Source: a virus (taxonomy: Duplodnaviria > Heunggongvirae > Uroviricota > Caudoviricetes). From it: a stretch of DNA of 47,693 nucleotides. Location of the stretch: the IMG/VR virus record IMGVR_UViG_2519899780_000005; one strand, given 5' to 3'. The notes under the pieces were generated by a model that was not told where the DNA came from, did not search any database, and saw only the letters and a list, made by a program, of their open reading frames with translations. This document shows positions 28,194 through 39,003 of this stretch, one piece after another (within the stretch, counting starts at the first letter, position 1; each line of letters starts with the position of its first letter). The translations under genes and the position numbers were made by a program.

Positions 28194-28727
28194 TTATCTG
28201 TCGATTCCCCAGCACGCCAGCGCGCTCTCCTGGTCACGACGGGATACCTGACCGTAACAGTTATTTGAGCGAATACGGCAGTCTCTGCCACCGTCCTTAA
28301 TCCACCAGCGAATCGCCTCACATGCTCCCCTGCGATCACCAGCATTAATTCGTCTGTAAAACGTCGACGGGAAACACTTACCGGGACCAATGTTGTACGG
28401 ACAGAATGACGCGATCCCCGCTTTCTGGGGTTCGGTCAATGGCACTCTGATGTTTTTCTCCACCCATGCCAGCGCCTTATCACGTTCGATGGCGTTAACC
28501 TGGTCGCATTTCTCCTTCGACAACTTCATGCCCGGGACGACAGGTTTACCATCCACCAGAATGGCACCGCGACAGATGGTCCAGATACCCGCGCCATCAC
28601 GGTATGCCGTGGTGTGGTTACCTTCCTTTTCATCCAGAAACTGGTCGAGAATGTCAGGCGCAGGCGCACCAGCGGCAATCAGCGCCAGAACGGCAGCCGA
28701 CAGGCCGTATTTGATTTTGGTGTTCAT
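28194..28727 (-). CDS. R: Endolysin R (lysozyme with N-terminal signal-anchor, SAR type)
   Basis: 177 aa; N-terminal hydrophobic segment; position in the lysis cassette. Confidence 0.9.
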   Translation of the reverse strand: MNTKIKYGLSAAVLALIAAGAPAPDILDQFLDEKEGNHTTAYRDGAGIWTICRGAILVDGKPVVPGMKLSKEKCDQVNAIERDKALAWVEKNIRVPLTEPQKAGIASFCPYNIGPGKCFPSTFYRRINAGDRRGACEAIRWWIKDGGRDCRIRSNNCYGQVSRRDQESALACWGIDR

Positions 28728-28769
28728 GGATATTTATCAGGATTTATCGGCAACAGATAACGAGCCAGC

Positions 28770-29576
28770 TTATATACGTCCTTTAAGATAAGTCAGTCCT
28801 GGATGAAACCAGTAAGCCGGCACTTTTTTAAAGGGCGGATTATCAAAATCACGAAGAAGAGCCTCCCGCACAACTGCATCCTTGTCCGCACCACTGGCCA
28901 GCGCTTCAATCTCAGCAGCTATCTGCAGATATCCCATGCAACGGCCAACGCGCTTCATCAGCCCCTGCTTTTTATTGTTCTTCAGGTAATCAATGGCAAA
29001 TTCAATGAGCGCCTCACTATGCTGGTGCGATGGCGGTGTTAATTTCCCATTTTCTGAGATGGTTATTTTCCCGCCATCTCCGTATACAACAAAGGATGGC
29101 CGGTTACACTCCCATTCCTGATCTTTATCAGGTGCAGACGCAATAAAATAACGTTTATTTCCTTCCTCTCCGGCACTTTTAACCGTAATGGAGTACTCAG
29201 ACTGCAGACAAGACGCCTCTTTTTCTGACCGCAGTGTTGACGGCGGCATCTTCAGAGAACCAGTAATTCTTCCCGGTAGCTTTCCTTTGTAGGTTATCAA
29301 CACATCCTGCGCCTCTAAAATTATGGGGCGCTTTTCCGGCAACGGTTCGTTCCCTTCACATAACCCGGCAGCAACATCCATGAAAAACTGCTTCGCCTGC
29401 TTTTTCGCCTCAGCTTCGTAAAACTCCAGCGTGGCACCTTCAGTACGGTCAAGACTAATCGCCACATCTGGCAACAACAGTGACGGATACCCACCAATTT
29501 CCAGTGCCACAGTAACAGTAATCTTATCCGGATAATTATTTATCCCTTTAACACCCAGTTCGTATTTTTTCTTCAT
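28770..29576 (-). CDS. Hypothetical 268-aa soluble protein inserted between holin and endolysin
   Basis: ATG 4 nt after the holin stop with GGGGGAG SD inside the holin 3' end; ends 42 nt before the endolysin start; no TM or signal peptide; no family recognised. Confidence 0.6.
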   Translation of the reverse strand: MKKKYELGVKGINNYPDKITVTVALEIGGYPSLLLPDVAISLDRTEGATLEFYEAEAKKQAKQFFMDVAAGLCEGNEPLPEKRPIILEAQDVLITYKGKLPGRITGSLKMPPSTLRSEKEASCLQSEYSITVKSAGEEGNKRYFIASAPDKDQEWECNRPSFVVYGDGGKITISENGKLTPPSHQHSEALIEFAIDYLKNNKKQGLMKRVGRCMGYLQIAAEIEALASGADKDAVVREALLRDFDNPPFKKVPAYWFHPGLTYLKGRI

Positions 29577-29580
29577 CGCT

Positions 29581-29796
29581 TTACTCCCCCCGCGCCGCCT
29601 TACGACGGTCCTCTCTGATTTTGAAATACAGGTTAGTCAGATATGTCAGCAGCCCAAACAGCAGACTCCCCAGCACGCCTATTGCCGCCCACTGAGACGG
29701 GGAAACCCTGTCCAGCAACTGCAGGAACCAGTAGCCCGTTCCCACCGCTGACGTGGTGTATGACACACCTGTTGTGATTTTTTCCATCTGGTACAT
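29581..29796 (-). CDS. S: Holin S (71 aa, dual-start motif MYQM)
   Basis: [29 protein letters not shown]… with two TM segments and charged C-terminus; recalled similarity to Stx-phage holins. Confidence 0.9.
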
Positions 29797-29946: not shown

Positions 29947-31800
29947 TTATGATGATGCCGGTGCATTTATCTCCAGCACCAGACTTTCTATCTCAACGCC
30001 ATACGCTGCATTTTTGGTAATATCCGTCAGCGTCAGCGCATTCAGCCCCAGTGTCAGACTGTCTTTTATGACCTGGAATGCCGGGCCAGCCACTCCATTC
30101 AGTTTCGGAGTAACCGTGGCACTGCCGGCGGTGAACACCAGCTCCAGCGTCTGCCAGTCGTTACTGTAATTCCCGAACTCGCCCAACTTTGTGTTTCCTG
30201 CTTTCTTGTGATGCATCAGATTCAGTTTGCCGTCTGTGGTCTGGGTGAAGAACGACATCAGGAACGGGTTACCAGTCCCGGTCATCGCCACGACGTCAGG
30301 TAACGCTACATCGGTATACAGATAAATTCCCAGACCGAACTGATTGTTGGTCAGTGCGCCTGACAGTCGAAACTTACAGCTCAGTCTGCCACCCCGTGTC
30401 AGCAGGGAGACTGCGTCATCCACCGGGCGCGTCAGGGACCAGGCTTTATTGCTCTGCTTGGCGATCTTAAATACACCACCCGACAACTGAATTCCGCCGT
30501 CCTTAATGGTCCAGCCCTGCGCAGCAGCCTCTCCGGCTGTCGGCAGCAGGGAGATTGTGCGAACGGACGTATCTGCAGACGGACCCGATGGCGTGTCGCC
30601 GCCGGGCGAGGGTTTGATTTCCGGTGCCTTACCACTGATGAAGGCTGAGGTGCGCCCGGCTACGTTCAGAATAGCAGTTGCCATACGATCGGGAATAATG
30701 CCACGACGCGCCCATGAGCTGAAATGCGTCGGGCGATTTGATGATACCCAGTTTTTGTTCGTTCGGGATGCCGAACCGTAATAACCAGACCCGGCAATAT
30801 CAGGATCTTCTGACGGGTTGTTTGTCGGTGTATTAACTCCGCTACCATCGGTCATAAAGGGAACAAAATAAATCTGCTGGGATTCTTTACCTTTATATGC
30901 ACCATATACCACTTCATATTGCGTACCGTGTTCTTGTTTCCACGCGTATGTCGTGTCGCCACAAATCCAGGGGACTGATGCCGGACTTCCACCGTGACAC
31001 TGCGCTGCCAGCCCGGCAAGGTCAGCACGGAACTGCTGTACCATTGCAAGAAATGCTGCTGGCTGCTGGGCGTAACTGGCATTCGTCATATCGAATTCCC
31101 CCTGCATCCAGCATATCGCCAGCAAAACGTTTTTCGGGTTTTTCTGCAATGCTGCCTTCGTGCGGAAAAGCAGATCCTGATATAACGGCTTACCCACTCC
31201 CCAGCGAGCCGAATCCTGACTGGCCCCCGTGGACTCGCTGAATGTCCCCTCCGTGCCCTGGGTGAATGCCGAACCACCACGACAGCATGGTACCAGCAGG
31301 ATCCCCGCATTATTAGGGATATACGGAAGCAGTTTTTTGGCAATATGTAAGCCCTGGCCGACACAGCCGTACTGCCCTTTGCTCAGGTCAGCCCGGGGAT
31401 GGTTAATCGTACTCATATCCTGAACATCATGCAGACAATGGTCAGCAGGAATGATGTCGTTAAATACGCATACTTCACCACCGGGAGTCACTGTGTTACG
31501 ACGGGCCAGTTGCTTAATGCGCGGATGGGGCGCATCGTATGAATCCGGAAGCGGAAGCCCTTCACCGTAAGCCATGGCATTGGACTGCCCGGCCAGTACG
31601 ATGACGTAGTACCACTCCGGCTCAGTTGCACCACTGACGACCACATCACCTTCTGCTGCAATCGCCTGCATCAGGGTATAAGGGGTTATGGCCACCGGAC
31701 TACCAAACGGCTGCCAGCCCTCTTTCAGTTTATGTGTCAGCTTTTCCGCAAGATCTGACGGCGACGCCGCCCTGACAACATCATAGTGTTTAAATGCCAT
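29947..31800 (-). CDS. nanS-p: NanS-p-like sialate O-acetylesterase (SGNH/SASA hydrolase with DUF1737-like N-terminus); ORF-track start is 31815
   Basis: GQSNAMAYGEG catalytic motif; ~620 aa; position immediately upstream of the holin as in Stx-converting phages. Confidence 0.8.
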   Translation of the reverse strand: MAFKHYDVVRAASPSDLAEKLTHKLKEGWQPFGSPVAITPYTLMQAIAAEGDVVVSGATEPEWYYVIVLAGQSNAMAYGEGLPLPDSYDAPHPRIKQLARRNTVTPGGEVCVFNDIIPADHCLHDVQDMSTINHPRADLSKGQYGCVGQGLHIAKKLLPYIPNNAGILLVPCCRGGSAFTQGTEGTFSESTGASQDSARWGVGKPLYQDLLFRTKAALQKNPKNVLLAICWMQGEFDMTNASYAQQPAAFLAMVQQFRADLAGLAAQCHGGSPASVPWICGDTTYAWKQEHGTQYEVVYGAYKGKESQQIYFVPFMTDGSGVNTPTNNPSEDPDIAGSGYYGSASRTNKNWVSSNRPTHFSSWARRGIIPDRMATAILNVAGRTSAFISGKAPEIKPSPGGDTPSGPSADTSVRTISLLPTAGEAAAQGWTIKDGGIQLSGGVFKIAKQSNKAWSLTRPVDDAVSLLTRGGRLSCKFRLSGALTNNQFGLGIYLYTDVALPDVVAMTGTGNPFLMSFFTQTTDGKLNLMHHKKAGNTKLGEFGNYSNDWQTLELVFTAGSATVTPKLNGVAGPAFQVIKDSLTLGLNALTLTDITKNAAYGVEIESLVLEINAPASS

Positions 31801-31993
31801 GGTTCTTTCCACCATCTGAAAAATGATTCTTTAAAATACCTGACATGTAATACAGAAAAAACACAAAACCATACCTTAATTAAAAACCTCATCATCAAGC
31901 AGATATGCATGGATAAACTACAAGACGAGATATAAACCACCCTGCATTTAAATAAACAATAAACAACATCAGAAAAATAATTCTGCTCTATGG

Positions 31994-32020
31994 TTTACAA
32001 TCAAAAATATCATTTATACT
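31994..32020 (+). promoter_or_regulatory. Putative promoter (TTTACA, 15 bp spacer, TATACT) for the plus-strand moron gene
   Basis: Hexamers read from the sequence; AT-rich context. Confidence 0.3.
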
Positions 32021-32060
32021 TTTCAGAACATCACCAGCAAGGCATAAACAAGGAAACTAA

Positions 32061-32396
32061 ATGAAGTGGATTGTGATTGATACAGTTATCCAGCCATCAT
32101 GCGGAATATCTTTTTCAGTCATATGGAGTAAAATAAAATTAATAATCTGGTATCAATCGGATGCTTTCTTACCTCCTGAAAGTATATTTACACTGACTCA
32201 CACAGGCATCATGCTCAATAACAAAGTGCTGCCTGTAACCATTTACAACGTAGTACCATTCAATAAAACATTCTGGAATTTAATCAAAAACAGCCAGGAA
32301 TGCCCTACAAATACAGATAACGTATTGAATGAATGCTTTAATAACCGTTGCACTCTGCAAATATGTCCTTATGGGCTAAAACAACAAAGTCCATAA
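32061..32396 (+). CDS. Hypothetical Cys-containing 111-aa protein (AT-rich moron at the toxin locus)
   Basis: AAGGAAACTAA-ATG ribosome-binding site; perfect hairpin follows at 32441-32462. Confidence 0.5.
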
Positions 32397-32440
32397 GGAG
32401 TTTACTCACATCTGACAAAATCAATATAAACAGCCCCTCC

Positions 32441-32462
32441 GGAGAGGGGCTGGAGAGTGGCG
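32441..32462. terminator. Perfect 9-bp stem-loop (cagcccctc-cgga-gaggggctg), likely a bidirectional terminator between convergent cargo genes
   Basis: Inverted repeat read directly; T-rich tract follows on the minus strand. Confidence 0.45.
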
Positions 32463-32843
32463 CTATGTGCCATTGCATGGTGCCGGGTGCCTCCCGGTGA
32501 ATTCAGTACCAGCACCTGAATCCGCGATTATCCCATATACCTACTCGCTGATTGCCCCTCCGCACAGGGGGATTCACCATGCCAGTTTCTTTTAACAAAC
32601 TCCCCGCAAACCAGACAACAGTCAACCGCCTGAATTGTGAAGTATTTAAAAATTTCTCCCGCTAACTGATACCCGGCTAACAGTCTGGCGTTTTCTTTTT
32701 CAGCAACGGGAAAGCAGCAACCACCACACCCGCCACCAGCACACCGTCAGCCAGCACTGACATTATCCGGCTGCTGCAATGCCATTCACAAAAACAGTAA
32801 GCAATCACTTTTTACCGTAACCGGTGATAATCCAGATATGTAT

Positions 32844-33200
32844 CTACCCCAGATGAGTAATCCGAAGTTCATCCATACCACAGGTCCTGGCTATTCTGTT
32901 GTACTCCTGAACAAGAGCAAATAATTCTGAATTAGCCACCATGAACTCATCGCAAACCCTCTGTATAGCATCACTATTCAGAATAATAACGTCTCTTCCC
33001 GAAAGACGATCAGGAGTACAGAACAAAACTGTCAAACGGCTGAAGGCCTTTGCTCGTTCTGCATTGACTATATCAATACGCTGCCTAAGGATGAAACACC
33101 CCGACGCCTCATCAATATTCACTCTACCCACACCATATGAATGATAAATATTTAATGCTGAAAAAACCATTAGACCGTATAACAAACACTCAATCAACAC
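32844..33200 (-). CDS. Hypothetical 118-aa protein occupying the position where stx genes sit in Stx phages
   Basis: ORF directly downstream of the tRNA cluster in the late transcript; start codon uncertain (GTG at 33200 or ATG near 33170). Confidence 0.4.
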   Translation of the reverse strand: MLIECLLYGLMVFSALNIYHSYGVGRVNIDEASGCFILRQRIDIVNAERAKAFSRLTVLFCTPDRLSGRDVIILNSDAIQRVCDEFMVANSELFALVQEYNRIARTCGMDELRITHLG

Positions 33201-33307
33201 TTAACAGAACTTTTATTTTTGACAAACATATAATATTTTCAACAATATCCTGAGCCAGGTATATTTCAGTATAAGGCTCTGCCGAAAGGAATCTGGAAGA
33301 ATGAATA

Positions 33308-33384
33308 TGGCGCGCTGTACTGGATTCGAACCAGTGACCGATTGCTTAGAAGGCAATTGCTCTGTCCGGCTGAGCTAACAACGC
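33308..33384 (-). tRNA. tRNA-Arg (anticodon UCU)
   Basis: Cloverleaf folds by hand: acceptor GCGTTGT/ACAGCGC, anticodon loop CUUCUAA, T-arm GGTTCGAATCC, 3' CCA; probably argO or argN of Stx-phage nomenclature. Confidence 0.85.
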
Positions 33385-33397
33385 ATGATGCAGATAA

Positions 33398-33474
33398 TGG
33401 ACCGCCATCGGGGACTTGAACCCCGCGCAGCCAGCTTCGAAGGCTGGCGCTCTATCCCGATGAGCTAATGGCGG
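33398..33474 (-). tRNA. tRNA-Arg (anticodon UCG)
   Basis: Anticodon stem CCAGC/GCTGG with loop CUUCGAA, T-arm GGTTCAAGTCC, 3' CCA. Confidence 0.8.
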
Positions 33475-33481
33475 TATGTGA

Positions 33482-33557
33482 TGGTGGCCCTTGCTGGATT
33501 TGAACCAGCGACCTGGCGATTATGAGTCGCTCGCTCTCACCACTGAGCTAAAGGGCC
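33482..33557 (-). tRNA. ileZ: tRNA-Ile2 / Met-like (anticodon CAU)
   Basis: GGCCCTTTAGCTCAGTGGT…ACTCATAATCG…GGTTCAAATCC…CCA; CAU anticodon in an Ile2-like body. Confidence 0.8.
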
Positions 33558-33606: not shown

Positions 33607-34656
33607 TCAAACGATTAAATCCTGAACTTCCCTGACTGTCTGCTCAAAACGTCCGGTCTCCAGTTCAACGCCAATCGCACGACGCCCGAGCGCCAGTGCA
33701 GCTTTTACCGTTGAACCTGAGCCCATAAAAAAATCTGCAACCAGGTCACCCGGACGACTGCTTGCGCTGATTATCTGCTGCAGCATTTCTGCCGGTTTTT
33801 CGCACGGATGTTTCCCGGGATAGAACTGCACCGGTTTATGTGTCCACACATCCGTGTACGGCACCTGCGCCGTCACACCAAAATACCGCCGCAGATGCTT
33901 ATATTCACTCTGCAGCTCCACATACTGCCGGTTCAGTGACGTATACGTATCCACCAGCTGGTGGTGGGGCTTTTCCAGTTCACCGCGCTGATGTTTCTCT
34001 TCTGCCACCCGGGCAAACAGCGACTGTAATTTCAGATAATCGCTTTCGTTCGGTAGCTGCCACTGACTGGCACTGAACCAGTGCGACACCATGTTTTTCT
34101 TTCCTGTGGCATCTGCAATCTGTTTTGCCGTTATCCCCAGGGCCGCGCGCGCATCACGAAAGTAAGAAATCAGCGGGGCCATCACATGCTGTTTCAGTGC
34201 ACTGCCCTTCGCCGCATACCCGGCATCTTTCGGACGATACGGCCCCTGATAATGTTCCGCGAACAGAATGCGCTCTGTGGCGGGGAAATACGCCCGCAGG
34301 CTTTCCTTGTTGCATCCGTTCCAGCGTCCGGACGGCTTCGCCCAGATAATATGGTTCAGCACACTGAAGCGTTCACGCATCATGATTTCGATATCAGATG
34401 CCAGGCGATGACCACAGAACAGGTAAAGACTTCCGACAGGTTTCAGCACCCGCCAGAACTGCGCCAGACACTGGTCCAGCCACTTCAGGTAATCATCGTC
34501 GCCCTTCCACTGGTTATCCCAGCCCTCAGGCTTCACTTTAAAGTACGGTGGGTCCGTGACTATCAGGTCAACAGAATTTTCGGGTAACGACCGGATAAAT
34601 TCCAGGCAGTCGGCGTTGATTAACTCACAACTGGATATTTTTACAGTATTAAGCAT
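33607..34656 (-). CDS. Orphan DNA methyltransferase (N6-adenine/N4-cytosine class, DPPY motif)
   Basis: …VDLIVTDPPYF… motif IV near the N-terminus; 349 aa; no adjacent restriction enzyme. Confidence 0.8.
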   Translation of the reverse strand: MLNTVKISSCELINADCLEFIRSLPENSVDLIVTDPPYFKVKPEGWDNQWKGDDDYLKWLDQCLAQFWRVLKPVGSLYLFCGHRLASDIEIMMRERFSVLNHIIWAKPSGRWNGCNKESLRAYFPATERILFAEHYQGPYRPKDAGYAAKGSALKQHVMAPLISYFRDARAALGITAKQIADATGKKNMVSHWFSASQWQLPNESDYLKLQSLFARVAEEKHQRGELEKPHHQLVDTYTSLNRQYVELQSEYKHLRRYFGVTAQVPYTDVWTHKPVQFYPGKHPCEKPAEMLQQIISASSRPGDLVADFFMGSGSTVKAALALGRRAIGVELETGRFEQTVREVQDLIV

Positions 34657-34806
34657 GGATCATTAAGCCTGTCTCTGATAGGCTCATTCTGCTTTTGCGC
34701 AAAGCAGTGGGCCTGAGGTGTGCTTGTGAACCCAACGCATGAGCAGATGGCTGGTGGGTGCCCCTAACACCCACCAGCCGCCCATTTACCACAAATAAAA
34801 AAGCCT

Positions 34807-35004
34807 TCACTGCGGAAGGCGTCTGTAACAACCGAACTGATAGTCTGCCAGACCCGCCATAACCAGCTGGGTCAGTATTAACTGGCAGCGTTCGCGTGAA
34901 AGGTAAGTATTCTGCGCAATCTCCCCGACTGTCGCCGGGTCGTTAACGCTTAATTCATTAAACACCACTCTGGCGGTTTCTGTCATATCCTGCTGTTTTA
35001 GCAT
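34807..35004 (-). CDS. Hypothetical small protein (65 aa, MLKQQDMTETARVV…)
   Basis: ATG with AAGGGA ribosome-binding site; lies between tR' and the methyltransferase. Confidence 0.4.
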   Translation of the reverse strand: MLKQQDMTETARVVFNELSVNDPATVGEIAQNTYLSRERCQLILTQLVMAGLADYQFGCYRRLPQ

Positions 35005-35123: not shown

Positions 35124-35147
35124 CATAAAAAACCCGCCAGGCGGCGG
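35124..35147 (-). terminator. tR'-like terminator downstream of the late promoter
   Basis: Minus strand CCGCC-gcct-GGCGG followed by gttttttat, ~90 bp after the Q stop. Confidence 0.5.
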
Positions 35148-35149
35148 AG

Positions 35150-35230
35150 TGTAAAAAATCTTCTAACGTCAGGCATAAAACGCCCATCGTTAGAGCAAAT
35201 TTACCACAGATTCGGGAAAAATCAACAACA
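35150..35230 (-). promoter_or_regulatory. Late promoter PR' / qut region (approximate)
   Basis: Position between Q and the tR'-like terminator; candidate TTGTTG…TAAATT hexamers. Confidence 0.35.
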
Positions 35231-37923: not shown

Positions 37924-38079
37924 TTACTCCTCAGGTTCGTAAGCTGTGAAGACAGCGACCTCCGTCTGGCCGGTTCGGAGTCGTACCTCGCAGAGGTCTT
38001 TCCTCGTTACCAGTGCCGTCACTATGACGGTTAAACAGATGACGATCAGGGCGATTAACATCGCCTTTTGCTGCTTCAT
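37924..38079 (-). CDS. hok: Hok/Gef family type I toxin (51 aa)
   Basis: MKQQKAMLIALIVICLTVIVTALVTRKDLCEVRLRTGQTEVAVFTAYEPEE matches the recalled Hok family sequence. Confidence 0.85.
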   Translation of the reverse strand: MKQQKAMLIALIVICLTVIVTALVTRKDLCEVRLRTGQTEVAVFTAYEPEE

Positions 38080-38316
38080 AGCCTGCTTCCCCTTGCCTTT
38101 CGGCACGTAAGAGGCTAACCTACATTTGTGAGACATAGATTGGGCCTCAGATTAATGTTAAGCGTCTTGCAGGACGCGAAATGTTAACTGGGGCTTTTCT
38201 CTATCTGCCTTTCAGTGTTCATGCCTGAGACAGATAGCCTCAAGCACCCGCAGCCATTCTACTTAACTCACGTCACCTCGCCAATATGAAATCAATCAGA
38301 AAGGTGATCCATAAAA

Positions 38317-39003
38317 TCACTCCTTCTCTTCTTTTCCGTAGTGGAGTTGGCCAATTTTGATAAGAGGGCGTCCCTGAGATTTGCGGTGTAGATTGGTATC
38401 GCGCAGAGAATACACACAGCCACAATATTCCTGCTGATAGAATTTTTCGCGCTTGCTGATTTCAATCATACGGGACGAGCCGCCCTGCTTGCGCCAGTTA
38501 TAATCCCAGTACACCATACCCGGATAATGCGCAACAGCTCGCCGCCCACACTCGTTAACCTGCTGCATATTTTTCCAGCGTGAAATGCCCAGTGAACTGC
38601 TGATCACACTGAAACCATTTTCAGCAGCGTACAACGCTGTCCGCTCAAAACGCATGTCAAAACACATGGTACAACGGATCCCCCTCTCAGGCTCCCATTC
38701 CATTCCTTTGGCACGTTCAAACCAGTTGTCGGTGTCGTAATCAGCATCGATAAACGGCACGCCGTGTTGTTCAGCAAAGCGAATATTTTCATCCTTACGA
38801 ATTAAATACTCTTTCTGAGGATGAATGTTCGGGTTGTAGAAAAAGATGGTGTAGTCGATTCCCGAGGCCTGAAGCGCCTCCATCACTTCACCGGAACATG
38901 GAGCACAGCAAGAGTGCAGTAGTAGTTTGTTTGCCCCGTTTGGGAGCTCCAATTTAGGCCGTTTGAAATCAGCAATAGTCATAAATATTTTTATTGGGGT
39001 CAT
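38317..39003 (-). CDS. QueH-like (DUF208) putative epoxyqueuosine reductase
   Basis: N-terminal [14 protein letters not shown] motif plus additional conserved Cys; identification from memory of the DUF208 signature. Confidence 0.5.

Follow-up and report, generated by a model that had tools for sequence, protein, structure and literature searches.

ORF92, iraL and an STnc100-family sRNA at the probable PR'-proximal moron site of an stx-negative lambdoid prophage

Introduction

The arrangement closest to the locus considered here was described by Tree et al. 2014 (PMC4104026): a moron coding sequence lies downstream of the Q-antiterminated promoter PR' and is followed by an sRNA region and then by a conserved esterase ORF. 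An STnc100-family sRNA has been placed after stx2B (PMC12370729). In uninduced EDL933 cells, 11 STnc100 copies are transcribed, one of which was confirmed by Northern blot (PMC5331693).

A second relevant system is IraL of E. coli CFT073, the product of c1429, which binds RssB and lengthens the half-life of RpoS (Hryckowian et al. 2014, PMC4045071). The gene is transcribed from a sigma-70 promoter that is active in exponentially growing lysogens, and its start has been located by 5' RACE; the conditions under which IraL stabilises RpoS differ from those under which IraM does so (PMC4045071). Expression of iraL occurs in log phase, and a fur mutation and a temperature of 37 C both raise it.

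Here we consider the late region encoded in a 47,693-nt stretch of phage DNA (IMG/VR record IMGVR_UViG_2519899780_000005), hereafter the window. An earlier note, made from the letters alone, had recognised the late-region backbone of a Shiga-toxin-converting phage with non-Stx cargo at the toxin locus, namely a 118-aa minus-strand ORF, an AT-rich segment and an opposing plus-strand gene, and had proposed that whatever is encoded there is expressed on induction, as Stx is. The region is very probably the PR'-proximal 'moron' site of an stx-negative lambdoid prophage, with iraL, STnc100 and a gene designated ORF92 as its cargo. The locus is common and largely characterised, and most of its cargo (iraL, STnc100) is known. 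The sole new element is ORF92, a conserved gene in the stx slot that annotation has missed.

Results

A late region of the Stx-phage type with another content in the stx slot

All members of the Stx-phage late-region order proposed by the earlier note (Q, methyltransferase, tRNAs, nanS-p, holin and endolysin) are present according to Pfam and ARAGORN (Table 1). On the late (minus) strand Q is followed by candidate PR' and tR' elements, a 65-aa ORF, the methyltransferase, the tRNAs, ORF92, a TciB/DUF3927-like ORF and STnc100 with its terminator. Beyond STnc100 come iraL, convergent on the plus strand, and then nanS-p, holin and endolysin. PGAP labels Q 'antitermination protein' in the identical locus of O104:H4; it places the start of nanS-p at 31800 and names the product a SASA family carbohydrate esterase. 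The window's nanS-p is 96% identical to that of Stx2 phage 86.

The candidate PR' agrees with the consensus at 8 of 12 positions and lies under the threshold of the promoter scan. The assignment of PR' and tR', like the read-through scheme discussed below, is drawn from such consensus matches together with lambdoid precedent. A search of the PR'-tR' stretch for an StxS-like RNA gave no Rfam family match.

Table 1. Features of the late region in window coordinates
Feature	Position	Strand	Evidence and remarks
Antiterminator Q, 273 aa	35231-36052	-	Pfam PF03589, E=2e-49
Candidate PR'	35198-35225	-	TTGATT, 16-nt spacer, TGgTAAATT (extended -10); inferred, read from sequence
Candidate tR' intrinsic terminator	35133-35148	-	Terminator scan; GC stem, then TTTTTT
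65-aa late-region ORF	34807-35004	-	phrog_331, E=5.9e-37; PGAP hypothetical protein WP_000917746.1
Terminator-like hairpin after 65-aa ORF	34803-34820		Terminator scan
N6/N4 DNA methyltransferase	33607-34656	-	PF01555, E=2.7e-44
Three tRNA genes	33308-33557	-	ARAGORN, Rfam tRNA, PGAP
tRNA CAT	33482-33557	-	PGAP: tRNA-Ile in O104:H4 locus, i.e. ileZ-like
tRNA Arg-tcg	33398-33474	-	ARAGORN
tRNA Arg-tct	33308-33384	-	ARAGORN
ORF92, 92 aa, GTG start	32844-33122	-	phrog_2873; conserved core of the 118-aa ORF (32844-33200)
DUF3927/TciB-like membrane peptide, 43 aa	32677-32808	-	Pfam PF13064, 92.7 bits (cutoff 25)
STnc100-family sRNA	32422-32611	-	Rfam RF02076, full length; between iraL and toxin slot
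STnc100 3' intrinsic terminator	32431-32452	-	Terminator scan; 9-bp GC-rich stem, T-rich tail
iraL, IraM-family RssB anti-adaptor, 111 aa	32061-32396	+	NCBIfam NF007393; in AT-rich island
iraL promoter (predicted) and 5' UTR	31994-32060	+	-35 TTTACA 31994-31999, -10 TATACT 32015-32020, start (A) 32028
nanS-p sialate O-acetylesterase	29947-31815	-	Pfam DUF1737 + SASA + DUF6645
Class II (P21-type) holin	29581-29796	-	Pfam PF04971
DUF1327/YdfR-family ORF	28770-29576	-	Pfam PF07041
Endolysin (lysozyme)	28194-28727	-	Pfam PF00959
Lysis region overall	28194-29796	-	Pfam, PGAP

Homology with the Stx2a phage EH2246 in blastn starts exactly at 35148, continues at 94.4% identity to 33300, breaks there and resumes at 32640. 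The boundaries of the stxAB slot were taken from this alignment and from those with mEp460_ev081 and CFT073. The slot corresponds to 32641-33299 of the window and measures 659 bp, compared with the 1368 bp of stx2AB in EH2246; it holds ORF92 and the 43-aa DUF3927/TciB-like ORF. A tblastn search of the whole window with Stx2A and Stx2B returned a best E value of 0.53, in keeping with the stated absence of stxA and stxB. Judged by its sequence, the region has the late synteny of an Stx-converting phage and lacks the stxA and stxB that such a phage carries. Of the 373 phage records matching the wider region, the majority belong to Stx-converting phages.

The lysis and morphogenesis genes of the prophage are complete. 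At 99.87% identity the window corresponds to the ompW-adjacent prophage of FORC_069, with which it was compared over window positions 47693-11813, and of O104:H4-type strains. The 1485-nt segment from nanS-p to the tRNAs (31816-33300) is 100% identical in the O104:H4 locus. The earlier note had asked whether this segment might be a common conserved spacer of stx-negative prophages that yields no protein. It is common there, 863 of 5426 complete E. coli genomes carrying at least 80% of it, and protein products are encoded in it. The cassette of tRNAs, ORF92, DUF3927, STnc100, iraL and nanS-p recurs in the potB prophage of CFT073, at 98% DNA identity from the last tRNA to nanS-p.

The AT-rich segment is iraL, and STnc100 separates it from the slot

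The AT-rich stretch and the opposing 111-aa ORF exist as noted earlier; GC content drops to 0.30-0.37 across about 31800-32400. By homology, segment and gene are iraL. The product matches NF007393 over residues 1-110 with 162 bits (cutoff 121), shares 62% identity with K-12 IraM and matches the IraM structure in the PDB (8twd) at E=9e-32. The same IraL accession, WP_000871291.1, is given by PGAP in CFT073 and in the O104:H4 locus. For the IraL subtype, identity to CFT073 iraL has to reach 95% or more across the entire coding sequence (PMC4045071), and the window gene differs there by one synonymous substitution.

The published 5'-RACE end of the CFT073 iraL mRNA (ACATCACCAGCAAGGCATAAACAAGGAAAC...) maps to position 32028, with the first 30 of its 32 nt matching, and the predicted promoter differs from that of CFT073 at -1 and -28. 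With its promoter, iraL is found at 90% identity or more in 1446 of the 5426 complete E. coli genomes. IraM responds to low Mg through induction by PhoP. As a PhoP box 5' of iraL, the only candidate was a TGTTTA-T-TGTTTA repeat, which was rejected because it is wrongly spaced and lies on the other strand.

The proposal that the opposing gene is made like Stx on induction does not hold: iraL has its own sigma-70 promoter and lies on the strand opposite to the late operon, antisense to the late transcript, and is not a Q-driven Stx-like product. Nor does it replace stx, since IraM-family genes coexist with the toxin genes; they lie just downstream of stx2 in 32 Stx2, Stx2a and Stx2c phage records.

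The STnc100-family sRNA scores 132.4 bits against RF02076 (gathering score 47), covering model positions 1-206 of 206, and the published STnc_100 primers (PMC12370729) match the window exactly. In the Stx2a phage EH2246 the family lies 75 nt past stx2B; in JLK-2012 and PPyecE_EH1910 it immediately follows tciB, and it also lies after the ORF92 of E. coli clade 2. In the window, neither of the anti-sRNAs AsxR and AgvB was detected convergent with STnc100 at E<=0.1. The full-length STnc100 and the DUF3927 ORF were the two features that the first reading of this DNA had passed over.

ORF92 is a conserved gene of the stx slot

The 118-aa minus-strand ORF reported earlier does contain a real, conserved gene, although not of that length. 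To judge from conservation, ORF92 is a genuine gene of 92 aa that begins at GTG 33122: the starts of its homologues align with this codon, and a GTG or ATG is conserved at the position. The longer 118-aa and 108-aa starts were discarded; CFT073 has GTA at the first codon, and in the clade-2 loci a stop codon interrupts the reading frame 5 codons ahead of the conserved GTG.

ORF92 matches phrog_2873 at E=1.7e-70. Its homologues are of conserved length (91-110 aa) at identities down to 22%; the family is tiny, with 20 representatives among 1.84 billion proteins and 40 clusters. All are from Enterobacterales, namely Escherichia, Citrobacter, Salmonella, Serratia, Morganella and Xenorhabdus. The dN/dS ratio between clades is 0.22-0.27, at a dS of about 1 that is saturating, and all 82 near-identical copies examined are intact.

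These data bear on the view that the minus-strand ORF is no gene and that the stretch from the tRNAs to STnc100 serves as a conserved spacer or leader without coding function. Annotation would agree with it, since 39 of 40 sampled RefSeq genomes have no annotated CDS in the ORF92 region and PGAP calls no ORF92 in CFT073 or O104:H4. The Shine-Dalgarno sequence in the clade of the window is also weak, and variation among the close alleles is limited to 5 synonymous and 4 non-synonymous sites. Yet one relative (L007) has a strong AGGAG, and the dN/dS ratio, the length-conserved homologues in six genera, the conserved start, the phrog_2873 match and a confident fold prediction (see below) all speak for a protein. 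We consider a non-coding spacer very unlikely and treat ORF92 as a gene in what follows.

The position of ORF92 in the late operon recurs in its relatives, most of which lie between Q and the lysis genes. It is preceded by Q and tRNAs and followed by lysis genes in Serratia, lies between Q with a methyltransferase and the holin in Morganella, and in Citrobacter follows Q and, further downstream, a tRNA, and precedes TerB and the holin. In E. coli clade 2 the order is Q, PemK, methyltransferase, AraC-like gene and ORF92. L007 has methyltransferase, ORF92, TerB/TciA, TciB and holin, and in a further relative (L008) TerB/TciA likewise follows ORF92. One relative is found outside a late operon, on a plasmid beside a fimbrial operon.

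The ORF92 region occurs in 1186 of the 5426 complete E. coli genomes (~22%). Among 50,697 phage records, tblastn gave a single match, the evolved phage mEp460_ev081, and none in a deposited Stx phage. A search for related loci with a 5-sequence ORF92 alignment yielded, from the viral collection, no copy below 98% identity.

The predicted 10.4-kDa product is a soluble, cytoplasmic and acidic protein (pI 5.3; 4.8-5.4 in the family), with no predicted membrane segment. Its AlphaFold2 model (pLDDT 88.6) consists of two long helices forming a helical hairpin. ORF92 has no family or defence-model match in Pfam, NCBIfam or PADLOC, and a Foldseek search of PDB and BFVD retrieved only generic two-helix hairpins such as prefoldin, BAR domains and designed bundles (E>0.08). 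An identity with the DNA-binding GapR/UPF0335 proteins was dropped because the match was not significant (best E=0.1 in a PDB profile search) and the ORF92 family is acidic.

ATA, AGA, AGG and CGA make up 9.8 per 100 codons of ORF92, the highest value among the nine genes compared. These are the codons read by the tRNAs that adjoin ORF92. Rare codons read by adjacent phage tRNAs have likewise been proposed for stx.

It could be argued that some unknown cargo of the Stx kind, be it a toxin or another virulence factor, has replaced stx here and that the whole segment is expressed on induction. ORF92 occupies precisely the slot of stx2AB, runs in the same direction as the late operon and shows the codon usage just described. 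Nevertheless, a 92-aa acidic helical hairpin with no toxin similarity and no predicted membrane segment does not resemble such a factor, the AT-rich half of the segment belongs to iraL with its promoter on the other strand, and IraM-family genes stand beside stx2 rather than in its place. An Stx-like cargo accordingly appears highly improbable. The most likely role of ORF92 is that of a late accessory protein acting through a protein partner to which it binds, a view in which our confidence is low as regards any specific role; it may serve in lysis timing, in control of late expression or in inhibition of a host protein. That ORF92 is an overlooked Q-dependent late-operon gene and the usual occupant of a slot that stxAB took over is a possible but rather doubtful extension.

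The DUF3927 ORF resembles a tciB remnant

The match of the DUF3927 ORF to the 'TciB-like' family phrog_1470 covers residues 12-40 only, and DNA homology to tciB of phage JLK-2012 begins at 32776, inside the ORF. The ORF list and Pfam reveal no TerB (TciA) ORF in the window segment. Because its N-terminus lies outside the tciB homology and tciA is absent, the ORF looks like a recombination remnant; it probably consists of a new N-terminus joined to what is left of tciB, its C-terminal portion.

From here one might go on to see the entire cargo as decaying junk of a defective prophage, with iraL silent and ORF92 and DUF3927 as remnants that have no current role, and cite the missing tciA as well as the truncated nanS-p and the IS200 after Q in the neighbourhood of CFT073 iraL, but this is scarcely credible given an IraL identical to the experimentally active CFT073 protein, the wide retention of iraL with its promoter, the intact ORF92 copies and the complete lysis and morphogenesis genes of the prophage itself.

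Discussion

Proposed expression of the locus

In the lysogen, by the precedent of CFT073, iraL would be transcribed from its own sigma-70 promoter with a start at 32028, and IraL acting on RssB would keep RpoS from ClpXP, raising RpoS in exponential phase. STnc100 would accumulate as a discrete sRNA. As long as Q is absent, sense transcription would be stopped first at tR' and a second time at the STnc100 terminator, which would thereby insulate the convergent iraL from antisense transcription that is not antiterminated.

Upon induction, Q-modified polymerase would proceed from PR' through the tRNAs, ORF92, DUF3927 and STnc100. Read-through would go on antisense over iraL into nanS-p and the lysis genes, and iraL, if anything, would be opposed. 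Since ORF92 is real, conserved and co-oriented with the late operon, it can reasonably be inferred to depend on Q for expression after induction, and to this extent the proposal of Stx-like expression survives. It fails for the opposing gene and its AT-rich surroundings: with Q read-through passing antisense over iraL, the products made 'as Stx is' would be those of ORF92 and DUF3927 only.

Implications

A cargo that annotation presents merely as 'IraM' plus gaps is in fact the log-phase RpoS stabiliser IraL and the STnc100 sRNA. Since iraL and STnc100 occupy the stx hot spot of STEC, it follows that lambdoid prophages repeatedly use this site to retune host stress physiology. The kinds of cargo found there include RpoS stabilisers, sRNAs, anti-sRNAs, AraC-like regulators, TerB/Tci proteins and toxins. 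In many Stx2c and Stx2a phages an IraM-family gene immediately follows stx2, which links toxin phages to RpoS control. ORF92 adds a small conserved late gene missed by annotation pipelines, with no hint of a dramatic function; if it does have a specific role, it would show what the toxin displaced.

Comparison with known systems

With Stx2a and Stx2c phages (e.g. Stx2_EH2246, 2851 and 1717) the locus shares, on the left and at 94% identity, Q, the 65-aa ORF, the methyltransferase and a tRNA set of the same ileZ/argN/argO type, and on the right STnc100, an opposite-strand IraM-family gene and nanS-p. It differs in the type of Q and in having ORF92 and DUF3927 (659 bp) instead of stx2AB. Moreover, the IraM-family alleles of the Stx phages are only 72-74% identical to the IraL of the window.

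The potB prophage of CFT073 has the same IraL protein and the same transcription start region, and its iraL is likewise convergent with the late operon. Here, a methyltransferase module is present where CFT073 has an IS200 insertion after Q, and nanS-p is intact, whereas it is truncated in CFT073. The CFT073 site is called a 'genomic island' in PMC4045071, where its equivalence to the stx locus is not discussed. K-12 IraM belongs to the same NF007393 family and is also encoded by a prophage-adjacent AT-rich gene. Its genomic context, beside e14, is different, and so is its regulation, iraL being sigma-70 driven and active in log phase.

The tciA-tciB cassettes of JLK-2012 and PPyecE_EH1910 occupy the same slot, extending from the tRNAs or the methyltransferase to STnc100. 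Those phages are devoid of ORF92, while the window is devoid of tciA. Finally, the locus resembles the moron site of Tree et al. 2014 in having STnc100 in the sense position, but its convergent partner is the protein gene iraL and not an anti-sRNA such as AsxR or AgvB. In PPyecE_EH1910, AgvB holds the position convergent with STnc100 that iraL holds in the window.

IraM-family genes in Stx2 phages

Thirty-two records of Stx2, Stx2a and Stx2c converting phages carry an IraM-family gene directly downstream of both stx2B and STnc100, in convergent orientation. These genes, for which annotation is often absent, are 72-74% identical to IraL, the IraM-family RssB anti-adaptor of the window. Their presence behind stx2 in so many records indicates that toxin phages commonly carry a putative RpoS stabiliser.

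Coordinates of the features discussed
Feature	Locus	Position	Strand	Remarks
IraM-family gene behind stx2B	L003 (Stx2a phage EH2246)	4973-5296		
IraM-family genes in Stx2 phages	phage-record matches H186-H221			e.g. phages 2851, 1717
iraL promoter	window	31994-32028	+	
iraL	window	32061-32396	+	
'hypothetical protein, incomplete' pseudogene	window	32467-32592	+	PGAP, in O104:H4, CFT073 and FORC_069
ORF92	window	32844-33122	-	
ORF92 relative	L098 and L099	5001-5276		91 aa, 34% identity
AraC-family regulator	L093	3969-4694		241 aa, phrog_1450
AraC-family regulator	L089	2933-3658		241 aa, phrog_1450
ORF between holin and endolysin	window	28770-29576	-	268 aa; DUF1327/YdfR domain, first 100 residues only
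QueH (epoxyqueuosine reductase)	window	about 38318-38983	-	correspondence with FORC_069
hokD/mokD (type I toxin)	window	about 37925-38136	-	correspondence with FORC_069

Annotation over STnc100 and other genes of the prophage

The pseudogene called by PGAP is probably spurious, since it falls entirely within an RNA gene, that of the STnc100 sRNA, which runs on the opposite strand. PGAP also marks the feature corresponding to the 268-aa ORF as a partial YdfR pseudogene; either fusion or gene decay may lie behind this ORF. The QueH gene and hokD/mokD are found in the early-right region of the prophage, and dicB, ydfD and a YdaT-family toxin at other sites of the same element.

Codon usage and relatives of ORF92

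The codons ATA, AGA, AGG and CGA, which the adjacent phage tRNAs read, occur at 9.8 per 100 in ORF92, the 92-aa gene in the stxAB slot, versus 1.4-4.2 in the neighbouring backbone genes, all of these being small samples. ATA accounts for 6 of the 13 Ile codons of iraL, again a small sample.

In the E. coli clade-2 loci (L089 and L093), the tRNAs are replaced by an AraC-family regulator directly upstream of the ORF92 homologue. An IS3-family element is inserted between the two genes in L089, altering the N-terminus of the ORF92 product. A further relative, in L098 and L099, is not part of a phage late operon. Its E. coli contig is plasmid-like, with an integrase and a gene for Rep3 replication, and the relative is located there upstream of a K88-like fimbrial operon regulated by PapB.

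Variation in the iraL promoter

Compared with its CFT073 counterpart, the iraL promoter of the window has A for G at -1 and A for T at -28, and the 5' UTR differs by a single change immediately ahead of the start codon. A promoter variant has also been described for the second iraL copy of strain JJ1886 (PMC4045071).
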